In this document: in pieces, positions 1 to 56,158 of the stretch
Numbering within the stretch: position 1 is the first letter of the stretch
Layout of the letters: each line of letters opens with the position of its first letter
The notes under the pieces: model-generated
Database searches by the model: none
What the model was told of the DNA's origin: nothing
The model's input: the letters and a program-made list of their open reading frames with translations, nothing else
Program-made: the position numbers and the translations under genes
Assembly: GCA_012401045.1 (NCBI GenBank)
Contig: GCA_012401045.1_4704.1
Source: a phage
Length of the DNA stretch: 64,000 bases
Reading direction: 5' to 3' (one strand)

Positions 1-1674
1 GTAACGCATTGCCCAGCCGGTTTGTTCCCAGCTACCAGACAGAACACGATCGATGATTTCGTGACGAGCGACAACACGCTGAGACATCGTCATATCGGTA
101 CGGTCGAAGCTGTCTTCCCAAGCTTCTACGGTATCCGGGTTAGTGATGTTCATCATGTACAGATCGTCCATATCACGAATATCGTGACGGTGACCATCCT
201 GGTGGTTGTAGTGACCCAGCGGGATACGGTTACCGGTAGCGTAGACCAGCGGTTGGCCGTATTGATATTTCTTGCTGAAGCAACCCAGGGTAACATCATC
301 GAACGCACGGAAGAGGGCTTTGTAACCTTCGGAGATTTCACGGACTTCACCTTCAACTTTGCCCGTATAGATCTTCTCAGCCGCCGGGATCATACGCAGC
401 AGCCAGCTGTACTCACCTTCTTCCGGTACGTCGATAGAAATCAGCAGAGACGGATACAGTACCTGTTGCAGGAACTTGTAAATCTGCTCGTTGGTTTGAG
501 TAGACAGATCCAGCGGTGCGGTAACTTCCGGATCCAGTACCATCGCCAGAGCACCCGGGTTATGCGGACCAATACCACGGGCAGCGTTGCTGATTAAAGA
601 CTGTGCCCACGCCATACCGCTGTTCAGCGTAGCGATGGTGCCAATCAGACCCAACACGAAAGTGTTCGGTGTGAACGCATCCAGCTCCAGCGGGTAAGCG
701 CTGGTCATCACGTAACGCGGCTGGTATTGTACAGTCGGCGGTACCGGATAACCGTTAACCAGAACAGGGCCTTGGTTGAAGGTCGGGTTCTGCGGGCTGT
801 AAGTCAGGTCAATGTAACCGGTGGTGGCGACCAGACGCTGTTGACTATCGTAATCGCTCATCGCTTGACGGATGCGGTTAGAGATAGTTACAGTGATGTC
901 AGAACGCACAGGGTTACCAACAATATCGCTGTCCTGCATACCGCTGGTGTTGTACTGAACGCTGCTGATTGGCTGATCGCTTGCCATCATGCCCAGGTTG
1001 AACTGCGGCAGACCCAGTTTATCACCGAGACGGATTTCGATCGCGGTTTGGATTGCGTTATCTGCAGCAGACAGCAGGGTGGTTGCCAGATGCGCAGATT
1101 CAGCGGTGATTTCATTGGTCACCACAGCCAGACCAGCGATACGAACAGTACCGTTAGACTTACCGCCAATAGCTGAGTACATTGCCGCCATGACTTCGTT
1201 GATGAACGTACCGTTCAGGTTATCAACCCAGGTACGCGGTACCAGAATGTTACCATGCGGACCTTGTTCTTCACGACGCGGCAGCGGAGCCAGACCAGCA
1301 ACCAGCGGAAGCACATAACCAAAGAAGTGGTTATGGTCACCAACTTTTGCACCACTCATAACGACCAGGGTCGGATACGGTACGCTGTACTGGTTCGGGT
1401 CAACCGCAACAAAGATGAAGTCGTTTTTGAACTGGGTATCTTCCAGATATTTCTCCATCAGACGACGGAGATTCAGTACCTGCTCGGAGCCAGTATTACG
1501 GCTAATACGACGGCTCAGTGTACGGTTGATCGTACGCATCGTATGAGTTACTTTAGGCTGGCCAGCAAAATCTGCAGCGGTTTCCAGCGCCTCATCAGCA
1601 CGTTGTGCGGTGCGGGTTTCAGCTGCACGAATTTCTACATTATCGTTACCGTTATTACGTACGTCTAAGCCCAT
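1..1674 (-). CDS. chmA: Candidate chimallin (phage-nucleus shell protein), N-terminal 558 aa; the C-terminus runs off the window start
   Basis: The minus-strand frame is open from ATG 1674..1672 (SD AGAGGAA 7 nt upstream) to base 1. It is missing from the ORF track because no stop lies in the window. It starts MGLDVRNNGNDNVEIRAAETRTAQRADEALE. Codon bias is extreme (CGT, CTG, GGT, ACC, AAC). A TATATTACC promoter lies upstream and phuZ is ~8 kb away. Identity is inferred from size, expression signals and context, not from a motif. Confidence 0.6.
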   Translation of the reverse strand, partial: MGLDVRNNGNDNVEIRAAETRTAQRADEALETAADFAGQPKVTHTMRTINRTLSRRISRNTGSEQVLNLRRLMEKYLEDTQFKNDFIFVAVDPNQYSVPYPTLVVMSGAKVGDHNHFFGYVLPLVAGLAPLPRREEQGPHGNILVPRTWVDNLNGTFINEVMAAMYSAIGGKSNGTVRIAGLAVVTNEITAESAHLATTLLSAADNAIQTAIEIRLGDKLGLPQFNLGMMASDQPISSVQYNTSGMQDSDIVGNPVRSDITVTISNRIRQAMSDYDSQQRLVATTGYIDLTYSPQNPTFNQGPVLVNGYPVPPTVQYQPRYVMTSAYPLELDAFTPNTFVLGLIGTIATLNSGMAWAQSLISNAARGIGPHNPGALAMVLDPEVTAPLDLSTQTNEQIYKFLQQVLYPSLLISIDVPEEGEYSWLLRMIPAAEKIYTGKVEGEVREISEGYKALFRAFDDVTLGCFSKKYQYGQPLVYATGNRIPLGHYNHQDGHRHDIRDMDDLYMMNITNPDTVEAWEDSFDRTDMTMSQRVVARHEIIDRVLSGSWEQTGWAMRY

Positions 1675-5541: not shown

Positions 5542-5955
5542 TTACTGATTAATCAAGTCGTTAGCAACAATCTTGGTGTAACCTGCCTGATTAAGAATTT
5601 GATTAATTTTCGTCACGTCGGTCGCATCCTCAATAACGATGCTGGGTTTATAGATCAGCGTCTTGGTAACGACGATTGTACTCTCCTTAATCCAAGGAAT
5701 CCCTAGAATCACATACTCACCATCGGCTGTAATGACCTCGACGTAATTGTATTTCGTCGGATCGTTCGGTACACTAGACGGGAGCCGGGAATAAATCTGT
5801 TGGTGAATGGCGTCTACATCACGGCCGTTACGCACAGCCGTACGATAGTTGTACACGGCACTAATTTCTACTCCGTTGAAGTTAACCCCAAGTTCTGGGG
5901 CGTACACATCAAAACTCACAACAGAGCCAATCTTTTCTAAATCAGAAGCTGGCAT
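5542..5955 (-). CDS. Hypothetical protein (137 aa)
   Basis: Clean ORF with protein-like composition, followed by a long 3' UTR and a terminator. Confidence 0.7.
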   Translation of the reverse strand: MPASDLEKIGSVVSFDVYAPELGVNFNGVEISAVYNYRTAVRNGRDVDAIHQQIYSRLPSSVPNDPTKYNYVEVITADGEYVILGIPWIKESTIVVTKTLIYKPSIVIEDATDVTKINQILNQAGYTKIVANDLINQ

Positions 5956-5966
5956 AATAGCATCCT

Positions 5967-6365
5967 TTATTTAAAAATGTATTCATATCCGAAAGTCGTC
6001 GCTGACCAGACCCGGATAGATGATAGTGTTCCGCCACGATAAAACGTTTTTGTGAATTCCATATCCTGGACAACACGATAATAAACACGTCCGATAATAC
6101 GCACGATAAGGTTTCGTGATAACGATCTCTCCTCGCAGTATTCATCGATAAAGTCATCGTCGATATCCGATAAGACAACATCCGCAATTTCTTGCAGTAG
6201 ATTCCTCATCAGCATCTGCCTTCCTTCGGTACCCCACCCAGACAAACAGTAATCGTCTTCTGCCTGACTATAGATGTCGTTAACCGCCTGTTCGAGCAGT
6301 TGCTCAAGATAGTAGTCATCGCGTTTTATAACGTGGCGACGGCGCTCAGTGGCGTATTTTTCCAT
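5967..6365 (-). CDS. Hypothetical protein (start chosen at internal ATG, 132 aa)
   Basis: The track ORF is 5967..6488. Its N-terminal 41 aa overlap the upstream gene and look non-protein-like. MEKYATERRR starts at 6365. Confidence 0.55.
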   Translation of the reverse strand: MEKYATERRRHVIKRDDYYLEQLLEQAVNDIYSQAEDDYCLSGWGTEGRQMLMRNLLQEIADVVLSDIDDDFIDEYCEERSLSRNLIVRIIGRVYYRVVQDMEFTKTFYRGGTLSSIRVWSATTFGYEYIFK

Positions 6366-6814
6366 CCTGTGTTTCTCTTGTTCGGCGTATGTATTAACGA
6401 CGCCACAGTCTTTTCTGGATCGTCCCACAATGCACGACGAAAACTGGATACTACCATAACGGTAGGATAGATTTGTACAACCTCCCATCCGTAACGATGT
6501 GCGTTAGTCGTACGTCCGACATTGAACAGACATAGCTGATTTAAGAAACAGAGCTGCATCTTCGTAAACAACACCATGTCTTCACGTTTAACGTATCCGA
6601 GGATATATGCATTCTCGAACGCCTCGCGTGACAAGACGGGACGATTAAGATACCGTAACGCTAATACCAACAACGTTGTTATGCGCAACGGATCTTCTGG
6701 GTCATTCATGGTGCTCAGCTCTGCTTGTAACCAGTCAGGGATAGTAACCGTCAGACGATAGGTATCTGTTCCACGATCAACCACATTCAATGTTGAAAAA
6801 GGCAACATATCCAT
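6326..6814 (-). CDS. Hypothetical protein (162 aa)
   Basis: ATG 6814 is preceded by AGAAGGAAT (SD). It overlaps the upstream gene by 38 nt. Confidence 0.65.
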   Translation of the reverse strand: MDMLPFSTLNVVDRGTDTYRLTVTIPDWLQAELSTMNDPEDPLRITTLLVLALRYLNRPVLSREAFENAYILGYVKREDMVLFTKMQLCFLNQLCLFNVGRTTNAHRYGWEVVQIYPTVMVVSSFRRALWDDPEKTVASLIHTPNKRNTGWKNTPLSAVATL

Positions 6815-7271
6815 GAATTCCTTCTAGCTCGAGGTTGTTCTCGCCGGTCTTCGGTAATAACCCACTGGCCGTTAACATCTGTGTCATCGAGTAGTCAAAG
6901 CACGGGAATATCAGGTTAACGGTTTCCTGGATCGCGTCAACATAACTATAAATGGCTTCATAATACTCACCGTCATGATCTACGCTAACCAGTTCCTGAC
7001 ACAGTTCTTCGCTTATCATTTCATATACCGGCGGATACCACGATTGAAATGGTCGCTGCATACGTAACGACCAATACTCGTACGTCGTATACTGAAGCAC
7101 GTCGTAAGCCGATACGTTAATGCGGTCGAAGAAAGCATACTTGTCCATATGCTGATACAACATCGCCAGCACGGTTTCCAAGCACACCGATATCCGCACG
7201 CCGTCATCTTTCCCGTTAAGAAAATTAGGTTTCTGCCGATAACGCACAAATGCCGACGGCTTTGATTGCAT
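6777..7271 (-). CDS. Hypothetical protein (164 aa; start at internal ATG)
   Basis: MQSKPSAF starts at 7271 in a TAATG stop/start overlap with the upstream gene. The track's longer N-terminus overlaps that gene. Confidence 0.65.
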   Translation of the reverse strand: MQSKPSAFVRYRQKPNFLNGKDDGVRISVCLETVLAMLYQHMDKYAFFDRINVSAYDVLQYTTYEYWSLRMQRPFQSWYPPVYEMISEELCQELVSVDHDGEYYEAIYSYVDAIQETVNLIFPCFDYSMTQMLTASGLLPKTGENNLELEGIHGYVAFFNIECG

Positions 7272-7756
7272 TATTCCACCACCAACCATAACGTCATACT
7301 CGTATCTAACGTAAAATTGAAATGCCACCAATCTTCTACACGTGGAATCCACGTACGAAGGATTTGGTTAACTTCGCTTCGCATCACCGATAAACGACAA
7401 CGAAAATCGAACTTCTCATCGTGGCCGTAGTCTTCATGCATGAAAACTTCATCCAAAACGAACTCAAGTTGCATGTCGACATCACGGCCAGAGATATTCC
7501 GTTTGTACAGATACAGTTCAATCGTGTCGTAAAGCAACGTGTGAATATCATAATTTCCGTTCGGTGAGAAATAAGGTAATCGCTCATCGAGCATCGTAAA
7601 CAGATATTCGCTGTAGTTTAATAACGGGATGATGTACCGACGCCCTGTCTGTGGTGTGCGAATATGTATCGAAACCTGACTTGGGCGCGGAATAACCGAC
7701 GGCTTAGAATCGTCTCTCTGAAATTGCTCTAAAGATCGCAACAAAGGTGGCCGCAT
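7271..7756 (-). CDS. Hypothetical protein (161 aa; start at internal ATG)
   Basis: The N-terminal part of track ORF 7271..7954 overlaps better-looking coding sequence in another frame. ATG 7756 has GGAGAG 7 nt upstream. Confidence 0.5.
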   Translation of the reverse strand: MRPPLLRSLEQFQRDDSKPSVIPRPSQVSIHIRTPQTGRRYIIPLLNYSEYLFTMLDERLPYFSPNGNYDIHTLLYDTIELYLYKRNISGRDVDMQLEFVLDEVFMHEDYGHDEKFDFRCRLSVMRSEVNQILRTWIPRVEDWWHFNFTLDTSMTLWLVVE

Positions 7757-8135
7757 TGTAACTCTCCAACGCCCAATTGTAAGGCCCTTCCAACATGTGT
7801 TCCCATACGTGAATAAACTCACTACCGAAGACAGGCTCCAGCGCCATGGTGAGATTCGTAAGTTCTGACGCAGCCGCATGGTAAGCATCAACATGTCTTT
7901 CCATTGACGGATCGTCTTCATTGAAAATACGTTCTGTGTCGCCAGCCCGCTCAATAAGTTCGGTAATGAGATCTGTCCATGTCTCGTGACACGTCATCAT
8001 TTCCTGTTCTCGACTTAGTATGCCGATGTCTGCGTGGACGCTGGACTCGAACCGGTCTAAAAGGACCCGAAGAACGTGCACCTTGTCGATGTATTTCACC
8101 GTTATCCAGGAAAGCGGTTGCCACCGACTCAGCAT
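7704..8135 (-). CDS. Hypothetical acidic helical protein (start uncertain: ATG 8135 or GTG 8099)
   Basis: The C-terminal ~140 aa of track ORF 7704..8333 look like genuine protein (ITVKYIDKVHVLRVLLDRFESS...). The upstream 66 aa overlap the good part of 7951..8928. Confidence 0.5.
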   Translation of the reverse strand: MLSRWQPLSWITVKYIDKVHVLRVLLDRFESSVHADIGILSREQEMMTCHETWTDLITELIERAGDTERIFNEDDPSMERHVDAYHAAASELTNLTMALEPVFGSEFIHVWEHMLEGPYNWALESYNAATFVAIFRAISERRF

Positions 8136-8928
8136 CCATCCGGTACTCGGGAACCCCAAACTCATATAGTACGGGTTGCACCGGACCGAAGACGGAGCGA
8201 CGTTGTTTAAATCGCTCCTTAAGGGCAAGGCCTTGTTTAATATAAACGGGTTCATTGGCGAGTTGTTCCGCTTTTCGTTTTGCGTGAGCCAATCGAAGTT
8301 CTTCCAATTGCCCAAGCCATTCAAATTGTTCATCTGTTAGCTCCTGGGGACGTTCAACAATCGCGCCAGACGGGCAGATATTGATCGTAATGTTAATTGA
8401 CGGCATCGCCATCACTCGAGGATTACTATTACGTACGCGGACAACATGTTCGGTTGCTGATTTACGATCGACGCAATACTCTGTTTCTTGGAACTCAAAT
8501 GCTTTTAACGGCGTTGGTTTTGTTTGACGTTTAGGAACGCGGCCAAGATCAACAATATAGGCATAATCGCACACACGTTCTATTCCGTAAATACGGTTAT
8601 CCGACCAGTTCTTACCAAACAGCTTGTTGTGATGATAAGACAAATATTCGGTTACCATACCCTGGACAACATCGAAATCTTCTCGAAATTCAGGTTGGTA
8701 CCAAATCGGGCCGAGAATATCTGCGAACGATTCATGACGATATCGAGGATCATGTCGAGTCCAGGTCATTCTCTGGTTAAGATCGAAATCCACCAACAAC
8801 TCGGTTAATTGCAATTTTTCCTTCGGAGAAAGCTGGCGTTGATGATGCAAACTCAGACAATCGATAAGCGGTAATGAAACCCACGATGCTAATGTGTACA
8901 AATCGATCCTGGCTAATCTCTTGGTCAT
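7951..8928 (-). CDS. Hypothetical protein (325 aa as tracked; the last ~45 aa are an Arg-rich tail of doubtful reality)
   Basis: The sequence is protein-like up to ...ATAFLDNGEIH (~8089). After that comes RQGARSSGPFRPVRVQRPRRHRHTKSRTG, which overlaps the next gene's frame. Confidence 0.6.
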   Translation of the reverse strand: MTKRLARIDLYTLASWVSLPLIDCLSLHHQRQLSPKEKLQLTELLVDFDLNQRMTWTRHDPRYRHESFADILGPIWYQPEFREDFDVVQGMVTEYLSYHHNKLFGKNWSDNRIYGIERVCDYAYIVDLGRVPKRQTKPTPLKAFEFQETEYCVDRKSATEHVVRVRNSNPRVMAMPSINITINICPSGAIVERPQELTDEQFEWLGQLEELRLAHAKRKAEQLANEPVYIKQGLALKERFKQRRSVFGPVQPVLYEFGVPEYRMDAESVATAFLDNGEIHRQGARSSGPFRPVRVQRPRRHRHTKSRTGNDDVSRDMDRSHYRTY

Positions 8929-9352: not shown

Positions 9353-9384
9353 ACGGCATAAAAGCCTGCCCCGAAGGACAGGCT
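9353..9384 (-). terminator. Terminator with UUCG loop, followed by TTTTATGCCGT
   Basis: The minus strand reads AGCCTGTCCTTCGGGGCAGGCT TTTATGCCGT. TATG (9360..9357) is 18 nt before ATG 9340. Confidence 0.75.
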
Positions 9385-9393
9385 CGATAGAAC

Positions 9394-9594
9394 TTAACGA
9401 CCATCCAATTTCAATGAAGGATGGTTGACGATATGTGCGTGTTTTGCTGGGTCATATAGCTGATATGGAAAATAGCCATGCCATTGACGGCCTTGGCATT
9501 TCGTACACAGGAACTGACCAACACCTTGTCGATTCTCGTAAGCGAGTTCGGTACTATCAACATGACCGCAACGTTCGCAGATAAACAGCGACAT
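9394..9594 (-). CDS. Small zinc-ribbon protein (66 aa)
   Basis: Two CxxC pairs: CERCGH ... CTKCQG. Confidence 0.65.
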   Translation of the reverse strand: MSLFICERCGHVDSTELAYENRQGVGQFLCTKCQGRQWHGYFPYQLYDPAKHAHIVNHPSLKLDGR

Positions 9595-9631: not shown

Positions 9632-10612
9632 TTAGAAAAGCAAGAAACCGCTATTCTTCGCTTCCGCTACAGTTTCGTCACCAACTTTCGGTGCCTGTTG
9701 ACGCGCGTTACGATGTTCGATGTAACGTTTCGCTTCGTCAGCGATTTGTTTGATAATACCCCCTAAACGATCGGTACTTAAAACAAACGACGTCGCTTCA
9801 CGAATTGGGCTGCTTTCAGGCACAAAACCATCGCAGCTGTAAATAGCGCTAACGCCCATGACTTTTGTCGCGTCTTTCGGATAAAGCGTACAGAAAGCAA
9901 TCGGGCTATCGTTCTCTTTCGTCCAATCGTATCCCATGAACGTATTCAGTTCGGTGATCGTTGGTTCCAAACCGGTAACACGTGGATGGTTTAAGAAGTT
10001 TTCCAGGTCGGCGCTGTCAAGACGACGGTTCTCGCCAGAAAACAGAACACAAAGCTGGCTAATAACAACCTGCACGTCCAGGTTGACATCCTGCTCCGAT
10101 TTCCCATTTTCGCCATTCATGTGATAGCTAACAATCACTGGACGTTTCAACCCTTCTGCAGCCGCCATCAGTCCTTTGAAGGTGCGATCGGCGTTGATCG
10201 TTTGACGCTCATCATCGAACGAGGCAACGATGCAACACACCACACGTTCACCACGTTCCAGCAGGTTAGCAACCAACGCAGGACCTGCAACAGAACCTGA
10301 ACCACCGCTCAGACTAAAGACCACGATATTAAATTTACCTGGCGTATGCTTATTCAGAATACCCGGGATTTGTGAACAGATCAGTTCAGCGTTCTCATCA
10401 CGCTTCTTACCAGAACCGTCTAACTCACGACCGGCTGCATCTTTAAAGATGTAAATATGATCGTCACCCAGTGTGCTATCGCGTAGGTTAGCGCGGCTGG
10501 TATCGACATACGTCATGCTGTGTAATCCTTTCGCGACTTCGCCTTCAAATGCTGAGCCGATTTCGCCACCACAACCACCGACAGCCCAAATATGTACTTG
10601 GTTCTCTTGCAT
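9632..10612 (-). CDS. phuZ: PhuZ-type phage tubulin
   Basis: 326 aa. The N-terminal AVGGCGGEIG is like the tubulin T1 loop. VVFSLSGGSGSVAGP is like the tubulin signature GGGTGSG. Overall layout and the C-terminal tail match PhuZ as I remember it from 201phi2-1. SD AGGAG. Confidence 0.8.
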   Translation of the reverse strand: MQENQVHIWAVGGCGGEIGSAFEGEVAKGLHSMTYVDTSRANLRDSTLGDDHIYIFKDAAGRELDGSGKKRDENAELICSQIPGILNKHTPGKFNIVVFSLSGGSGSVAGPALVANLLERGERVVCCIVASFDDERQTINADRTFKGLMAAAEGLKRPVIVSYHMNGENGKSEQDVNLDVQVVISQLCVLFSGENRRLDSADLENFLNHPRVTGLEPTITELNTFMGYDWTKENDSPIAFCTLYPKDATKVMGVSAIYSCDGFVPESSPIREATSFVLSTDRLGGIIKQIADEAKRYIEHRNARQQAPKVGDETVAEAKNSGFLLF

Positions 10613-10622
10613 GTGAACTCCT

Positions 10623-10676: not shown

Positions 10677-11519
10677 ATGGGTGCTATTGACTACAGTGTA
10701 GATCGTATCTGTCGTACAATACCGGCAGATATCCTACAGTATTGCTATATCGATCGTTACGACTGGCGTAATCGCTATCCTCGTTCCGTAGAAGACATCA
10801 TTACCGATTGGGTAATCCGTAAACGGGTTATCGGCGACATCGATATCTACGGGGGACTACAAACCGTTATTCCCCTTGATGATGCAGGTGTCACAATCGA
10901 AGAAGTCACCATTAACTGTTATGTTTTCCACATTCCGTTGGAAGCCACACAGGGACGTTATATCACGTCCGCATTATCCATTATTTCAGGGAGCGTGAAC
11001 AACTACGGAATAAACTATAACGGGCAATGGGGCGCTTTCAACCAAACCCAATTTCAACGTCAGCTTTGTGGGTGGAACCCCGCAAGCAACACGTTACAGC
11101 AAGGGATGAACGCGTTCGGTCCCATGAACGTTCTTAGTACAGCCAACGTTGATATCATCGCCCCTAACACCATCATGGTGAACAACGTCACGCCTGTACA
11201 ATTTCCCCTGAGCCTACGCTGTTTCCTTGCCCACGATCCGGAACTTACCAACCTCAGCATGGAGGTTTGGAACGACTTCTACAAACTCTGTTTATACGCC
11301 ACGCAAAGTGACATCTACAACAGAACCGTTATCCGTCTCGATAGAGGTGTTACAGCACAAGGACAAGAAGTCGGTGCATTCAAGGAATACATCGATCGCT
11401 TTGCTGATGCTGAAAACACATATCAGGAATTCCTGAACGAAACGTGGGCAGGCGTTGCTGCCTGGAACGATCCGCAAACTAAACGTCGCGCCATTCGACT
11501 ACAAACCGGTTACTTCTGA
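10677..11519 (+). CDS. Hypothetical protein (280 aa)
   Basis: Clean ORF preceded by AAAGGGG. No motif recognised. Confidence 0.75.
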   Translation: MGAIDYSVDRICRTIPADILQYCYIDRYDWRNRYPRSVEDIITDWVIRKRVIGDIDIYGGLQTVIPLDDAGVTIEEVTINCYVFHIPLEATQGRYITSALSIISGSVNNYGINYNGQWGAFNQTQFQRQLCGWNPASNTLQQGMNAFGPMNVLSTANVDIIAPNTIMVNNVTPVQFPLSLRCFLAHDPELTNLSMEVWNDFYKLCLYATQSDIYNRTVIRLDRGVTAQGQEVGAFKEYIDRFADAENTYQEFLNETWAGVAAWNDPQTKRRAIRLQTGYF

Positions 11520-35995: not shown

Positions 35996-38900
35996 TTATT
36001 TAGCGTCGTTAAAGTAAATATCAACAGCTCGTTCCGTTGCGTAGAGGAGACCAAGATTCACAGTCCCAACCACTTCCGGTGAACCGATGATACGGTTAGC
36101 GATACTGGTGCCACTGAAGATAGCATCAAGGGTGTGCCCGTCTTCGGTTTTGTTCACACCATGACCCACGGAAGAGACAACGGATTTCGCTTGAGCTGCG
36201 AAGGTACCTTTATCGCCCATCCCCGCACCAAGGTCGTAACGCATGAAAATACGGATTGCGATCTGGTTCTCGCCTAACGGATTACCGTCTATTCTCACGT
36301 TACTGTTATTGATACGCCCCGTAGCTGCTTCGTTGAGTTTCAGTTCCTTAACGCGTTTAGCTCGCGCTTTATCTGCATCACCGACGAGCGCCGCCATGGT
36401 TTCACTCATATCCTCAATCTGAGCGCGGTACAACACATCGATCTGTACAACTTCACCATGAACGTCAGCACGTGGGTTATACTGACTCATACGACGTAAT
36501 GCTTCAACGGCTTCCTGACTCTCATCACTCAGATCGGTCGCAATCGGTTCTTCCAGTGTTGCAAGGATCGTTCGTGGTTCAACATGATCGCCGATTTTCA
36601 CGAGACCACGAATGTTGAGATGGGCGTCAACGATGAGCGTACGGCTCTTAATCGATGGTGTTACGAGACGATCGGCAAGATTGTCGAAGATATACGAACT
36701 GTCCTCGTGAGTCTCTGGAATATCCAGAATACCGACAAGAGACAGAACACCTGCGCGCCAAACAACCTGACCTGGGTTCCACCAATCGCGTTTAAAATAA
36801 AGACGATGGAAGACCACCACATCCTGATCCTTAACGCGATCCCCGACTTTATAATCGGTAATAAGATCGTGAGGATAATACTTACCTGGTCCTTTCCCGA
36901 TTATCGTGCCGAGTTGGAAAACCTCTTCTCCTAACTCTGGATCGTCGTATTGTATCGTAAGCGCAGTTTTGGTGACCTTCTTAACAACACCATCGCCTTG
37001 GGCAGCTGCTGCGAAGAGCTTACCAACACGATGCGCGATAACGGTCTCACCGCCGGTGCGCCACGGTTGTACATCGTAACCCTCAGCGGCAATCATGCGG
37101 TTGTGTTGGATCCCGACGAAGACCAGACGTTTTCCATCATCACGGTCTACGGCTGGAACAGCTAACGCCGACGTACTCATTACCGATGAGATACCGTCTG
37201 TCTTTTCATCGAATGGTCGTGTTTCACCATACACCGACACGATATTAGCATTAGGTGCAAGGTAAGCTGAGATACCCACATCCCCACTATCTTTCGTACC
37301 CTCTGACACAATACCAACATCGGACTTGTCGTATTCACGATCACGTGCGCGTCGAAGCGATGTCTTTGAACGACCCCCGATACCGGTCATCGTTGCTTCT
37401 TCACCCTGCTTGATATCCAGCATCGGGTTGGTTTCATCGATCACGATGGACGCGCTGTCGTCGAGAATTTGGTTCCAGACGCTTACCGGACTGATTGAGA
37501 TTTTCTGGCGATTTCCTTGACTGCTGTTCTCATTCTGACGAATAGCGCCAACCAGATCCTTATACACCAATTCAGCGAACTTATCGTACGTTTTAAAACG
37601 TTGGTAGTTCACATCGTTGGTGTTAGGTGCCCAGTCATCCAGAAGCAGTTCAACAGCACGCAGTAACAACATGGCGAAATCGGTAGGTTCTCCCATGTTC
37701 TGTAGCAACGTACGGCTTACCGGATCAACGAAAAGACGCTCCATGAGTTCAAGTTCGCGTAAATGGCGAACCTTAAGTCCAGCACCATCAACAACGTTAA
37801 AATAGATATCTCGATTGTCGAAAGCACCGCGAGCGTAACCGATGTAGTTACGGTATTCGTTAAACCCACCCAGCAACAACGTCGTCATGCGATCGTCTTT
37901 ACTGAAGATCAAACTTTCGTCATCAAAGCTCACCGCGAATTCATCGGGTGCTAATCCCATACGAGAACCGCGAGGTACCGTACGATAGTTCGCTTTAAGA
38001 TGTTCTAATAACGGGGTAAGTCCACCCAGATAACTTAGAACGACACCAACCGGAATACGTACACCCATGAATTCAAGATCGGCGGCTTCGATCGGCATCT
38101 TAGCCGCATTGATACCGAAGAAATCAGGGAACGTCCCTACAGGTGTTGGTGTTTGTCCTGACTGACAGATATAGAGCTGATTGCGTTTATCGATTGCTAA
38201 GAATTCACCCAGCGTGTTACGCGCAAACGTCAGGAGCCCTTCGGCTAACTGTTCGTTGAACCGATCTTCCCCGATGAACTCCGGCAATGTCTTTGTATCG
38301 AGACGTATATCCCAATCAGCAAATTGGATTTGGGTATAGTTGCGTGCAAGCACAGCGAAGTAATACGGGACTTTGACGGCCGGATCAAAGACGTTACCAC
38401 GTTTTAACGTGGTTAAGGGTGAGGACTTATCGTAATACATCGCTGTAAGTTGGCGTGTTAACCAACGACCGGCGTTATTAACGACACGCTCTGAACGTTT
38501 AACAAACACCTTACCGTAGGCGGTACTCAACGCAACTTCGGATGATGATACCTTTCTAATAGGTTTATCAACACGTTGTTTACGCATCCGGTATTTGATG
38601 CCGTTAACGACATAAATGCCGTCCTTACGAACCTTCGGCAACATCACCGGGAACGTGGTTGGGACACCGCCTACAGGGGCCAGTTTAATCGTGATAACTT
38701 GATAATCCCCCATCACGTCAACAACATCTTCAACTTTATATCCCGTGACAGGGTAACCTGCCTGTTGTACGGCAACAACAGCGGCTGCGATGTCCTTTTG
38801 CATCACGTGTTCAACGTAATGTTTATCCCACACCGCAAGCGTCGATTTACATAGGCTCTTATCGACGATAACATCCGCTTCCGGCATAACCTTTGCTGGC

Positions 38901-40342
38901 GCTAATTTCGCGGCTTTTGGTTTAACTTCAACATACTCAGCAAGTGTTAATCCAGAACCGTCGGGTGCTTCGATTTCATGGATGGCGTCGGCATTACGCA
39001 TCGCTGCTTTATATTGGACACCGCTTAACTGACCCGCATCCGCCAGATCGCTCGCGCGCACCAACACCGCATCCGATAACGACTGAATATATTCACCGTG
39101 TGTTTTTGGTAACGTTGCCGCGTCAAAGACATCAACCTTTTCTTCTTCGGTATCGTCGGTAACGACCTCGAAGAGATCGTCGGTAATGTCCTGATCTTCA
39201 TCGGGTTGGAAATCCGGCTGTACTTCTACCCCGGGTACTTCACGGACATCTTCGAACGAGCGTTCTACAATGGCGTTCCACGCATCAGCGTCATCGTCTT
39301 CATCCGACCCACCAACCAACTCCGCTTCTAACTCATCGGGATCAAGAACAGTGGCCAGATCCTCACCGTTAGGAAGCACGACGTCGCGATCATCGTACTC
39401 TGCATCCGGGCTGTCCGCAAGAATATCTCGCTCTTGACGAAGAACCTGTTCCTCTTCTTGTTTCTGTTCTTCTTCATTCGCGCTCTGCGACCATAGACGT
39501 GTTACCGCCATCATCCAACGACGCTGGAAGGTTTCGAGTGTCGTTTTATCGAGTTCTTCCCCTTCCTTTACAAGCCCGGTACGCCATTCTTCCAACAGGC
39601 CGAGATTCAGCGTAAAGAAGTACACGCCGTCTGTAAATACAACGTTAAGCTTATCCAGCGTGGCTCTGTCTAACGAAGCCATCGTGCTGTTCTCACGATC
39701 GGTTCCCAGCCAGCGGAAGAAGTCAAAGAACGACAGCTCCTCCGGCGTAGCGAAATTCATGAGGTTGTTACGGGTCGGTGCCTGTTGCGTGGTACGCATC
39801 AACGAAATCTTCGGCAATGTTGACGGTATACGGAACAACAGAAAGTGTTGGCGATCGCTTTGCTGCGCGATTTCGTTGGCTTTCGACCAAATTGTTTTAC
39901 GTACGTTGAACCATTCATCATACCAACGGGTGAGCGTTGGACGATAGATGTACATGTGGTTAAGATGTGCGTAGTTAGCAACGATCTGAGCGTTGATGTT
40001 TTTCTCCACCGTACTTAGATCGGTAACCAAACGAAAACGACGATGTGACGCACGATAATCCAATTTCGCTCGTGGGAGCTGGAATCGCTGATCACGTCGA
40101 GGTGCACCCTGTTTGGTTGCGAGATCATCAGCAAACGAAATCCATAGTTGAGCACTTTCTTTACTCAACATGTATTCGTTTTCTGGAGGACCTATCAATG
40201 AAGGATCCGTTGCGGTGTAATGATAGACAGCATAACGTGGCAGCTGCAATAGCTGCACTAAACGTAATCTCGGTGACAATAGCTCTTGGTAGCGTCTGAC
40301 GCCAAACTGTCGGTAGTAATCAAGGTATTTAAGTTTTGCCAT
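35996..40342 (-). CDS. Multisubunit RNAP beta-subunit fragment (large N-terminal/major part), probably of the virion RNAP
   Basis: 1448 aa. MTGIGGRS...SEGTKDSGDVGISAYLAPNANI resembles beta ALGPGGL...ETPEGPNIGLI. GIQHNRMIAA resembles NMQRQA. MGDKGTFAAQAKSVVSSV...EDGHTLDAIF resembles GDKxAGRHGNKGVxS...EDGTPVDIVLNP (GDKG at 36217..36206). The protein ends before a GEMEVWA-type region. Confidence 0.8.
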   Translation of the reverse strand: MAKLKYLDYYRQFGVRRYQELLSPRLRLVQLLQLPRYAVYHYTATDPSLIGPPENEYMLSKESAQLWISFADDLATKQGAPRRDQRFQLPRAKLDYRASHRRFRLVTDLSTVEKNINAQIVANYAHLNHMYIYRPTLTRWYDEWFNVRKTIWSKANEIAQQSDRQHFLLFRIPSTLPKISLMRTTQQAPTRNNLMNFATPEELSFFDFFRWLGTDRENSTMASLDRATLDKLNVVFTDGVYFFTLNLGLLEEWRTGLVKEGEELDKTTLETFQRRWMMAVTRLWSQSANEEEQKQEEEQVLRQERDILADSPDAEYDDRDVVLPNGEDLATVLDPDELEAELVGGSDEDDDADAWNAIVERSFEDVREVPGVEVQPDFQPDEDQDITDDLFEVVTDDTEEEKVDVFDAATLPKTHGEYIQSLSDAVLVRASDLADAGQLSGVQYKAAMRNADAIHEIEAPDGSGLTLAEYVEVKPKAAKLAPAKVMPEADVIVDKSLCKSTLAVWDKHYVEHVMQKDIAAAVVAVQQAGYPVTGYKVEDVVDVMGDYQVITIKLAPVGGVPTTFPVMLPKVRKDGIYVVNGIKYRMRKQRVDKPIRKVSSSEVALSTAYGKVFVKRSERVVNNAGRWLTRQLTAMYYDKSSPLTTLKRGNVFDPAVKVPYYFAVLARNYTQIQFADWDIRLDTKTLPEFIGEDRFNEQLAEGLLTFARNTLGEFLAIDKRNQLYICQSGQTPTPVGTFPDFFGINAAKMPIEAADLEFMGVRIPVGVVLSYLGGLTPLLEHLKANYRTVPRGSRMGLAPDEFAVSFDDESLIFSKDDRMTTLLLGGFNEYRNYIGYARGAFDNRDIYFNVVDGAGLKVRHLRELELMERLFVDPVSRTLLQNMGEPTDFAMLLLRAVELLLDDWAPNTNDVNYQRFKTYDKFAELVYKDLVGAIRQNENSSQGNRQKISISPVSVWNQILDDSASIVIDETNPMLDIKQGEEATMTGIGGRSKTSLRRARDREYDKSDVGIVSEGTKDSGDVGISAYLAPNANIVSVYGETRPFDEKTDGISSVMSTSALAVPAVDRDDGKRLVFVGIQHNRMIAAEGYDVQPWRTGGETVIAHRVGKLFAAAAQGDGVVKKVTKTALTIQYDDPELGEEVFQLGTIIGKGPGKYYPHDLITDYKVGDRVKDQDVVVFHRLYFKRDWWNPGQVVWRAGVLSLVGILDIPETHEDSSYIFDNLADRLVTPSIKSRTLIVDAHLNIRGLVKIGDHVEPRTILATLEEPIATDLSDESQEAVEALRRMSQYNPRADVHGEVVQIDVLYRAQIEDMSETMAALVGDADKARAKRVKELKLNEAATGRINNSNVRIDGNPLGENQIAIRIFMRYDLGAGMGDKGTFAAQAKSVVSSVGHGVNKTEDGHTLDAIFSGTSIANRIIGSPEVVGTVNLGLLYATERAVDIYFNDAK

Positions 40343-40345
40343 GGG

Positions 40346-41992
40346 TTAGGCTCCACGAGGTCCCGTTAAGTTGCGTAATAGGAACGCAACCGTATCGTAA
40401 CCAATATCGATGTTGAATTTATTTTTACCACTTACCCAGAAAGCTCGCTTCTTGTGCGAGTTGGTAATTTCGTCAATAGCTTCCATGGAATAAAGAACGT
40501 TAACCGAGACCGTATCACCATCAAAGTCCCCACCAAGTCCGGCGAGGTATGGCGCAGGGACAATAGTCGTTTCTACGAACGAAGCATTAGGTAACCAGTC
40601 GGGGTATTCCCATGCGATAAATCGTTCATCCGTTATTGGTTCCCAGTTACTATCCAGTTCGGTTTTCGGTTTTGCGGCGACGGTTGTACGTGCGTAACAG
40701 GTTAACGGGATAACGGATTGCATACCTGATACCGGATAACGTGTTACCATCGCAGCCAGGTTATTCCAGTACTTATATCCGGCAATATAGATAAGCTCGG
40801 TGTAAGTAATGGGGTGAACATCCGCGCCAGGTTTATTCAACATCTCCGGGGGTAATTCACTCATGCCACGGAATAACCGAAACGAATCGTTGTTCACATA
40901 GACGAGGCAAAGATATCGTCCATTGACCATGATAGGCTCGTTACGCACGCCAGGATCGCTTAAGGTGTTCAGTAAACGTTCTATTCCGTCCCATGTTGTA
41001 AAGTCATCGATGGTGTCTGGATCAAGCGTGACGCGCTCACGTTCCATCGTTTCGGTATCAGTAAGTTCAACTTCTGTAACATCACGGACAAATATTTCCT
41101 GCAAAATACCGGTACGTAACGCATGTTGCGTTACTGGGAGAGCGGCTTTACTCATCTGGTATAACCCTAACTGAACCGCGGTACAGGAAGGCTGGTTAGG
41201 CGACCCTAATACCTCCGTTGTGGGGTTAATTGCCGAAATAACGTTACGGGTTGAGTTCCAAACGCGACGTGAACCAAACTTACCTTGGAAGATCCCTTTC
41301 TTACCCTGGAACATATCCAACAGTAAAGCGTAGATATCGTTGAATGTTCTCTGTAAGCTCCAGCGCTGGCCGTCGTAAACGGGATCGGAATAATCTTTTA
41401 ATCCATCAGGGACGGTGTTAGAAATTGCAAGGAAACGACGATACAACTCCGTGATTTCTTGCTCGCTTTCATACCCACCTTCTTTTACTTCTATTTCACG
41501 TAAGCCTGCAGGCAATACCAGTAAGTGACGGGTCATCGCTTTGAACATGTTCTCTTCGACAACTTTAATTCGTAGCTCTCGTTGAGCTGAACCCGTTGAA
41601 ACGAACTTGATATCCGCGACGTGTTGTGCAAAGAACCCGTATCCTGTTTGTCCTGTTAATGCATCAGACGCAACGAAGTCGCGTTGTTCGGGATCCCACC
41701 GAGCGTACGCCTTCCCCGACATGATATCGCCATAGAGGTGTTTTAATCGAATGAGACGGTCGTAAATGACAGGATGCAGGATTTCAACCTTGCATTCAAT
41801 CACCGCAAATCGACGGTCTCGATCTTCACTACCCGCACTACCAAAGATGGTGTAAGAATAGAAACCATCATCGTGGAAATTACCGGTGCTTGGGTCACGA
41901 ATGCTCATGCTCGTGATCTTGGGGAGAAAACGTAACTGCTGTTTATCGAGGTGTAAAATACTAATATTAAACGGCTCTCTGACTTTAGCCAT
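40346..41992 (-). CDS. Multisubunit RNAP beta' N-terminal fragment (contains the catalytic DFDGD loop)
   Basis: LAGLGGDFDGDTVSVNVL has DFDGD at 40528..40514, 55 aa before the stop. The start is chosen at MAKVREPF (ATG 41992, with AAGAGGAG upstream) rather than the track start at 42034. Confidence 0.8.
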   Translation of the reverse strand: MAKVREPFNISILHLDKQQLRFLPKITSMSIRDPSTGNFHDDGFYSYTIFGSAGSEDRDRRFAVIECKVEILHPVIYDRLIRLKHLYGDIMSGKAYARWDPEQRDFVASDALTGQTGYGFFAQHVADIKFVSTGSAQRELRIKVVEENMFKAMTRHLLVLPAGLREIEVKEGGYESEQEITELYRRFLAISNTVPDGLKDYSDPVYDGQRWSLQRTFNDIYALLLDMFQGKKGIFQGKFGSRRVWNSTRNVISAINPTTEVLGSPNQPSCTAVQLGLYQMSKAALPVTQHALRTGILQEIFVRDVTEVELTDTETMERERVTLDPDTIDDFTTWDGIERLLNTLSDPGVRNEPIMVNGRYLCLVYVNNDSFRLFRGMSELPPEMLNKPGADVHPITYTELIYIAGYKYWNNLAAMVTRYPVSGMQSVIPLTCYARTTVAAKPKTELDSNWEPITDERFIAWEYPDWLPNASFVETTIVPAPYLAGLGGDFDGDTVSVNVLYSMEAIDEITNSHKKRAFWVSGKNKFNIDIGYDTVAFLLRNLTGPRGA

Positions 41993-55483: not shown

Positions 55484-56158
55484 TTAGCCCTCATCAAGGT
55501 TATTCTGGAGATGCATCGCGGTGAGGATAACGCCAACCGCCGAAACCGATTTTGCCTTGCTGTCTTCAGGGAGCTGCTCCAAGCTTACGGTACCTGTTTC
55601 TAACAGCATGCGGTTCATTGCGTTGAACTTCTTATCGTCACCACCACGAGCCTGCATCAGCTCTCGGTTCACGTTCGGCATCGACCGTCCTAACGTCGCT
55701 TGCATTTCCGGCTGGCTCCAAGTGGAACCTTTACTATCACCCGTCGGCTGATTGGTGAGCTGGTCCTTGGTGTTGTTGTTTTTCGGAATCGAAATTTTAG
55801 CACTCAACGTTTCGGCTTGTCGGCGGTTTGGAATCAGGTACAATCTGGTTGGGCGGTCACGAAGCACCAATTGCCCTGTTTTCTGGTCGGTGAGATAAAT
55901 GCGTTGGAAGAAAGGGAAACCGTATTTCTTACCGACTTCCAACGCACGTTTTATCGTCACCTCGTTTTTGTTCATGTTGGGTACCCAGATGGGTAGAATC
56001 TCTTTCTTATCCCGACATAAACGCATATAGGCATCAAACGTCTCATCATCGATTTCAGCAAAACGTTTTTTGTAAATAGCGTAAGTCGGGCTCGATTCAC
56101 CCACCAGGTCTTTGATATACCCAAGAATGAATTTTTCTGCTGCAGCGCGGTTGGACAT
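55484..56158 (-). CDS. Hypothetical protein (224 aa)
   Basis: Clean ORF; no motif recognised. Confidence 0.7.
   Translation of the reverse strand: MSNRAAAEKFILGYIKDLVGESSPTYAIYKKRFAEIDDETFDAYMRLCRDKKEILPIWVPNMNKNEVTIKRALEVGKKYGFPFFQRIYLTDQKTGQLVLRDRPTRLYLIPNRRQAETLSAKISIPKNNNTKDQLTNQPTGDSKGSTWSQPEMQATLGRSMPNVNRELMQARGGDDKKFNAMNRMLLETGTVSLEQLPEDSKAKSVSAVGVILTAMHLQNNLDEG

Follow-up and report, generated by a model that had tools for sequence, protein, structure and literature searches.

The phuZ locus

The window analysed here is a 64,000-nt (64-kb) stretch of phage DNA. Its genes are named after their counterparts in Escherichia phage vB_EcoM_Goslar (hereafter Goslar), with which the whole 64-kb window is collinear at ~97.5% nucleotide identity. 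The gene under study, phuZ, lies on the minus strand between a zinc-ribbon-like ORF and a portal-adaptor gene, and the features of this region are as follows.

9358..9384, minus strand: terminator-like hairpin (AGCCTGTCC-TTCG-GGGCAGGCT, then a T-run), read from the sequence
9394..9594, minus strand: 66-aa ORF, zinc-ribbon-like (CxxC...CxxC), homologue of Goslar gp235, recognised from its sequence
9632..10612 (stop codon within), minus strand: phuZ, 326-aa tubulin/FtsZ-superfamily GTPase, from the ORF and its translation
10618..10622, minus strand: phuZ Shine-Dalgarno sequence AGGAG, 5 nt 5' of the ATG, read from the sequence
10677..11519, plus strand: portal-adaptor gene, homologue of Goslar gp233, Pfam DUF7484 match

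The minus-strand translation of 9632..10612 starts with MQENQVHIWAVGGCGGEIGSAF, has GGCGGEIG as residues 12-19 and SLSGGSGSVAG as residues 100-110, and ends in a C-terminal tail (residues ~295-326) whose final residues are NSGFLLF. An earlier note on this DNA had the coordinates, the length of 326 aa and both motifs right and left the minus strand unsaid. The Shine-Dalgarno sequence is placed inside the 64-nt gap between phuZ and the divergently transcribed portal-adaptor gene, whose Goslar homologue, gp233, is identified as the portal adaptor by the structure of the virion (preprint 10.64898/2026.04.21.720040). On the other side, the 66-aa ORF starts 37 nt downstream of phuZ and precedes the terminator, and the two genes are probably co-transcribed. 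The GC-rich hairpin coincides with an annotated terminator of Goslar (record positions 180588..180607) and, as read from the sequence, has the features of an intrinsic terminator that would close the phuZ/zinc-ribbon transcription unit; it is absent from the output of a simple consensus terminator scan. A sigma-70 promoter scan around phuZ gave background levels (5 sites for 3.9 expected), which is unsurprising in a phage whose genes are read by polymerases of its own.

Relationship of the window to Goslar and its relatives

Megablast searches with the phuZ region and then with the first 25 kb of the window retrieved Goslar at 97.7-98.3% identity. In local alignments, the correspondence is made up of two blocks: window 1..40519 matches Goslar 171225..211747 (97.6%) and window 40527..64000 matches Goslar 213799..237273 (97.3%). 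The gene order is therefore collinear with Goslar throughout the 64 kb, which was one of the comparisons suggested in the earlier note. That note also attributed the DNA to a nucleus-forming jumbo phage of the chimallivirus type, and the attribution holds: the window carries chimallin and virion RNA polymerase genes (see below) and is collinear with the 237-kb genome of Goslar, a demonstrated nucleus-forming phage (PMC9891218).

The PhuZ proteins of the window and Goslar are identical at 325 of 326 residues. The Goslar protein is annotated as 'tubulin PhuZ' in RefSeq (HOV27_gp234, which corresponds to GenBank gp201, the numbering used by Birkholz et al.). Their sole difference, D229 in the window and E229 in Goslar, is conservative and falls in a variable segment. 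At the DNA level, the two genes differ at 19 nucleotides, 18 of them in third codon positions. Within the assembly collection, some 850 blocks encode exactly the window protein, and contigs of 237-241 kb account for many of them; six contigs encoding it differ from the window by 1.7-3.4% of their DNA over 20.6 kb. Eight public Goslar-like contigs were sampled, and every one of them differs from the window, with nucleotide identities of 96.0-98.3%. The genus Goslarvirus has grown from 1 to 237 genomes through Escherichia, Shigella and Salmonella assemblies (PMC12768965), and the window is a further variant of this large and globally distributed population.

Identity of the PhuZ protein

The closest profile to the window protein is PHROG 4733, 'tubulin PhuZ' (E=2.9e-68), which aligns residues 1-323 with profile positions 1-321 of 323. 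Among proteins of known structure, it matches chain C of PDB 9pm9, a 'Tubulin/FtsZ GTPase domain-containing protein', with a single mismatch (E=4e-220); a literature search for the code 9PM9 found no paper describing this structure. The same PDB search recovered phiKZ gp39 (3zbp, E=8e-29, residues 5-292) and the PhuZ of 201phi2-1 (3r4v/3rb8/3j5v, E=6e-15). The Pfam Tubulin GTPase domain PF00091 aligns to residues 9-151 (model positions 5-173 of 190) with E=8.3e-7 and 29.9 bits. Since the gathering cut-off of this family is 33 bits, the protein falls just short of it and Pfam alone would leave it unannotated. Its membership in the tubulin/FtsZ superfamily, as judged from sequence comparison, rests on the solved PhuZ homologues and not on the PF00091 gathering score. 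The proposal of the earlier note that this is a PhuZ-type tubulin thus agrees with the matches to PHROG 4733, PF00091 and the PDB entries.

The nucleotide-binding and catalytic loops can be aligned with those of the solved structures. In T1 (G12-G13), GGCGGEIG of the window protein pairs with GGAGFRIG of phiKZ gp39. In T4 (SGGSGS, residues 102-107), SLSGGSGSVAGP of the window protein pairs with SMGGASGSTIGP of phiKZ gp39 and SLGGGSGSVLGP of 201phi2-1. In T7 (D199 and D202), RLDSADLENF pairs with SLDLMDITNW of phiKZ gp39 and RLDVHDVANW of 201phi2-1, and the catalytic D202 corresponds to D190 of the 201phi2-1 PhuZ (chain 3rb8). An alignment of seven PhuZ sequences (the window, phiKZ, PhiPA3, RAY, PCH45, PhiEaH1 and EL, with 23-31% identity to the query) contains 18 invariant positions, namely G12, G13, D37, N42, G66, G68, K69, N95, I96, G103, G106, N140, L190, D199, D202, P237, G262 and G322. 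The reading of the two motifs as GTP-binding loops in the earlier note is consistent with these alignments, in which T1, T4 and T7 are matched both to the solved structures and across the seven proteins. In the tail, all seven sequences have an aromatic or hydrophobic residue after the invariant glycine G322. In the 201phi2-1 structure, the C-terminal tail of PhuZ is used for contact between subunits. Homologues of PhuZ occur in 173 phage records, every one of them of 209-309 kb.

Taken with the near identity to the Goslar protein, the gene at 9632..10612 is almost certainly the phuZ of an Enterobacteriaceae chimallivirus of the Goslar-like type (genus Goslarvirus), and its product a PhuZ GTPase of the vortex type seen in Goslar. 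Its Goslar counterpart, one residue apart, has already been studied by imaging, mutagenesis and structure determination. As a discovery the gene counts for little, given that characterisation and the 237 genomes already assigned to Goslarvirus (PMC12768965). Its value is rather that of an anchor, which fixes the window as belonging to a Goslar-type chimallivirus, so that most of the other genes can be assigned by orthology.

Selection on phuZ and the zinc-ribbon ORF

Selection was estimated as pN/pS from the comparison of the window with seven other Goslar-like sequences. The value for phuZ is 0.002, a figure that is partly biased by the choice of six of the seven comparison contigs for their exact PhuZ identity. 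The unbiased comparison is that with Goslar only, which comprises 18 synonymous differences and 1 non-synonymous difference. This pattern of substitutions indicates that phuZ is under purifying selection. In the natural variation among Goslar-like genomes, the PhuZ protein is almost frozen despite its 'accessory' status.

The 66-aa ORF is intact in the window and in six other Goslar-like contigs. Among these seven Goslar-like genomes, its product changes only at residues 33, 34 and 66, with a pN/pS of 0.68. The protein has no PHROG match and nothing meaningful in the PDB search, and all its matches to Pfam zinc-ribbon families are below threshold. In PCH45, a distant chimallivirus, there is no conserved zinc-ribbon gene beside phuZ, and the ORF is specific to the Goslar lineage. 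According to a 2025 review, the factors that choose between a vortex and a bipolar spindle are not known (PMC12908238). It could be imagined from the adjacency of the two genes that the 66-aa protein is a PhuZ-associated factor, a nucleator or an anchor, that favours the vortex over the bipolar spindle, but this is a long shot.

Chimallin and the genes between chimallin and phuZ

The window begins within the gene for the nuclear shell protein, and eleven genes lie between it and phuZ. Besides the 66-aa ORF, they and the shell gene are the following.

1..1674, minus strand: gene of the nuclear shell protein chimallin (ChmA), represented by codons 1-558 of 631 (5' part), the 3' end lying beyond the window start
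gp245 homologue: 364 aa, PHROG family of unknown function
gp244 homologue: 717 aa, divergent family-B DNA polymerase (PF20286, E=1e-204)
5542..5955, minus strand: gp243 homologue, 137 aa (PF20287, E=1e-36)
5967..8928, minus strand: gp242-gp237 homologues, six consecutive genes of 98-325 aa
gp236 homologue: 106 aa, PHROG family of unknown function

Searches with the 558-aa chimallin fragment gave 'Chimallin' of PDB 7sqt (1257 bits, E=0), the Pfam family PF25677 and PHROG 4795, 'nuclear shell protein', and the Goslar annotation agrees. The candidate shell gene of the earlier note is thus indeed the 5' part of chimallin. The same note counted PhuZ among the hallmarks of nucleus-forming phages, which cannot be maintained: PhuZ is non-essential, and about one third of Chimalliviridae lack it (PMC12908238; PMC12768965). 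Chimallin is the defining gene of the family and serves as its marker, and PhuZ is accessory.

The chimallin fragment has a pN/pS of 0.12, with ~88 non-synonymous differences summed over the seven comparisons. In the same genomes, PhuZ, the portal adaptor and the DNA polymerase all evolve noticeably more slowly as proteins.

The earlier note had described about eleven small genes of no recognisable function, conceivably nucleus-associated, between the shell gene and phuZ. The number was correct, but the set includes the 717-aa DNA polymerase, an SH3DP protein and proteins of 364 and 325 aa. The gp243 homologue adjoins the DNA polymerase gene and matches PF20287, defined as an 'SH3 fold domain associated with phage DNA polymerases'. 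A protein numbered gp243 has been put in the lower baseplate wedge of Goslar (preprint 10.64898/2026.04.21.720040). That number should designate the gene at 5542..5955, because gp218, gp234 and gp246 of the preprint all match the RefSeq tags, and the PF20287 annotation and the baseplate-wedge assignment are possibly in conflict. The gp242-gp237 homologues partly overlap, by up to ~50 nt, and none of the six matches Pfam or PHROGs. Their pN/pS of 0.00-0.07 reflects strong purifying selection and argues that these six ORFans are real, constrained genes, and they are specific to this lineage.

Virion RNA polymerase genes and the missing intron

Five virion RNA polymerase (vRNAP) subunits, gp78, gp196, gp205, gp207 and gp210, have been found in Goslar particles (preprint 10.64898/2026.04.21.720040). 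The genes for four of the five map into the window, among them the following.

35996..40342, minus strand: vRNAP large subunit, homologue of Goslar gp207, 1448 aa (PHROG 3148, E=0)
40346..41992, minus strand: vRNAP beta'-N-like subunit, intron-less allele of Goslar gp205, 548 aa (PHROG 2986, E=4e-179)
55484..56158, minus strand: vRNAP small subunit, homologue of Goslar gp196, 224 aa (PHROG 3233, E=1e-65)

The region 35996..41992, previously described as a split multisubunit RNA polymerase, does encode RNA polymerase subunits; it consists of two separate ORFs, 35996..40342 and 40346..41992. The product of the latter carries an uninterrupted DFDGD catalytic motif and has a weak PDB match to the beta' subunit of AR9.

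The junction between the two alignment blocks falls in this gene. Goslar positions 211754..213797 (2044 nt) are without counterpart in the window, where the junction lies at ~40520..40527. Within this Goslar segment, RF00028 recognises the core of a group I intron (67.7 bits), and an ORF that corresponds to the HNH endonuclease gp206 has the domains HNH_3 and NUMOD1. A scan of the whole window with Rfam gathering thresholds returned nothing, including no group I intron, and this empty result is informative about the missing intron. A tRNA scan of the whole window also found none. The Goslar intron, which is preceded by U and has G as its last base, splits the beta'-like gene as ...GGC GGT GAT / TTC GAC GGT GAT, that is, G-D | F-D-G-D. 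The intron-less window reads GGTGGGGACTTTGATGGTGAT at the site coding for DFDGD, and the spliced exons of Goslar read GGCGGTGATTTCGACGGTGAT. When Goslar gp205 is spliced in silico, it gives a 548-aa protein with two residues different from that of the window. Its last ~60 residues come from Goslar 211574..211753, downstream of the intron, where they are left unannotated, and the RefSeq CDS of gp205 (HOV27_gp205) appears to stop artificially, inside the intron.

The window and Goslar differ by five synonymous changes within ~13 nt around the insertion site. The divergence on the 5' side of the site reaches 10% over 400 nt, compared with 2-3% elsewhere, and the 3' side has a single difference in 180 nt. 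This pattern suggests co-conversion during intron homing or selection for endonuclease-resistant targets. Both intron-bearing and intron-less alleles are found in IMG/VR contigs. The polymorphism resembles the system of PhiPA3 gp210 and phiKZ gp178 (PMC11620839), which involves another RNAP subunit gene. The intron-less window and Goslar make up a pair that could be used to study intron-endonuclease competition, as was done with PhiPA3 and phiKZ (PMC11620839).

Function of PhuZ and alternative interpretations

The function of the window protein can be considered in the light of the work on Goslar (PMC9891218; review PMC12908238). Goslar GFP-PhuZ forms filaments once it is above a critical concentration, and in infected cells PhuZ makes a vortex-like array that surrounds the phage nucleus and reaches the membrane. 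The D202A mutant of the T7 loop, which is dominant-negative, assembles at much lower expression and forms no vortex, and the proportion of rotating nuclei falls from 97% to 29%. The Goslar nucleus is not centred and shows no midcell enrichment, and D202A leaves its positioning unchanged.

Since the window protein has 325 of 326 residues in common with Goslar PhuZ and keeps every catalytic residue, we infer the same mechanism for it, and the window variant would be expected to behave as Goslar PhuZ does. The monomer would bind GTP through T1 (GGCGG) and T4 (SGGSGS), and monomers would polymerise head to tail. The T7 aspartates D199 and D202 would then complete the GTPase site of the neighbouring subunit, and the resulting hydrolysis would make the filaments dynamic. 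The polymer is probably stabilised by a tail (...NSGFLLF, at the C-terminus) that extends onto the adjoining subunit, a contact that we infer for the window protein. Arranged in a vortex-like array, the filaments would surround the chimallin-shelled nucleus, push on the cell membrane and rotate the nucleus. The proposed benefit of this rotation is that capsids dock, and DNA is packaged, over more of the surface of the nucleus. By analogy with Goslar, the PhuZ of the window lineage would not centre the nucleus, and its gene would be accessory and non-essential.

Several other interpretations may be considered. The window PhuZ could form a bipolar, pole-anchored spindle that brings the nucleus to midcell, like those of the Pseudomonas phages 201phi2-1, phiKZ and PhiPA3. 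The proteins of these phages belong to the same family and have the catalytic loops in common with the window PhuZ, and the centring of the nucleus by a spindle has been described for Pseudomonas phages (review PMC12908238). Nevertheless, the window protein is only 23-26% identical to those of phiKZ and PhiPA3 and 99.7% identical to that of Goslar, for which imaging shows a vortex, no midcell enrichment and no positioning defect in D202A. A spindle is therefore very improbable here, and the statement of the earlier note that the nucleus is centred by a tubulin spindle has to be replaced: Goslar PhuZ forms a vortex that turns the nucleus and has no positioning role. More remote still is the idea of a DNA-partition tubulin of the TubZ type, which would use a centromere and its TubR adaptor to segregate a plasmid or prophage. 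In the superfamily, PhuZ has TubZ as a sister branch, and the fold is shared by PHIKZ039 (3zbp), which is tubulin-like. Yet the best profile is PhuZ over the full length, all 173 phage homologues are in jumbo phages, and the gene is found in a lytic chimallivirus genome, adjoining structural and replication genes. Its immediate neighbours are the portal adaptor and the 66-aa zinc-ribbon ORF, and neither a repeat centromere nor a TubR-like DNA-binding gene is annotated or detected beside it. These observations make a partition function extremely improbable.

Finally, the gene might be a remnant, decaying or without catalytic activity, of a lineage that is heading towards the loss of phuZ, as happened in several chimallivirus genera. 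The dispensability of PhuZ and its loss from about one third of Chimalliviridae would make such a fate conceivable. Still, the phuZ ORF is intact in all the genomes examined, its nucleotide-binding and catalytic residues are all kept, nearly all the DNA differences are synonymous, and Goslar PhuZ forms dynamic filaments in vivo, which leaves this interpretation a negligible probability.

Comparison with known systems

The phuZ locus of Goslar is like that of the window, with which it shares the neighbours, the gene order, the ribosome-binding site, the downstream 66-aa ORF and the terminator. Goslar PhuZ (PDB 9pm9/9pmk) differs by its E229 and is encoded by a genome that is a separate variant, at ~97.5% identity. 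The PhuZ proteins of 201phi2-1 (gp59; 3r4v, 3rb8, 3j5v) and PhiPA3 (gp28) have the family, T4 and T7 and the conserved G-F of the tail in common with the window protein, but they are only ~23-27% identical to it and assemble into a nucleus-centring bipolar spindle, in contrast to the Goslar-type vortex. The same distinction between spindle and vortex separates it from phiKZ gp39 (3zbp/3zbq), which has ~26% identity and comes from a phage with a Pseudomonas host. With FtsZ, TubZ and eukaryotic tubulin (PF00091), the window PhuZ shares a recognisable GTPase domain and the logic of a GTPase coupled to polymerisation. Nevertheless, the signature GGGTG[ST]G of these proteins is replaced by SGGSGS in the window PhuZ, and whereas the FtsZ/TubZ/tubulin class serves in cell division or plasmid partition, PhuZ moves a viral compartment.
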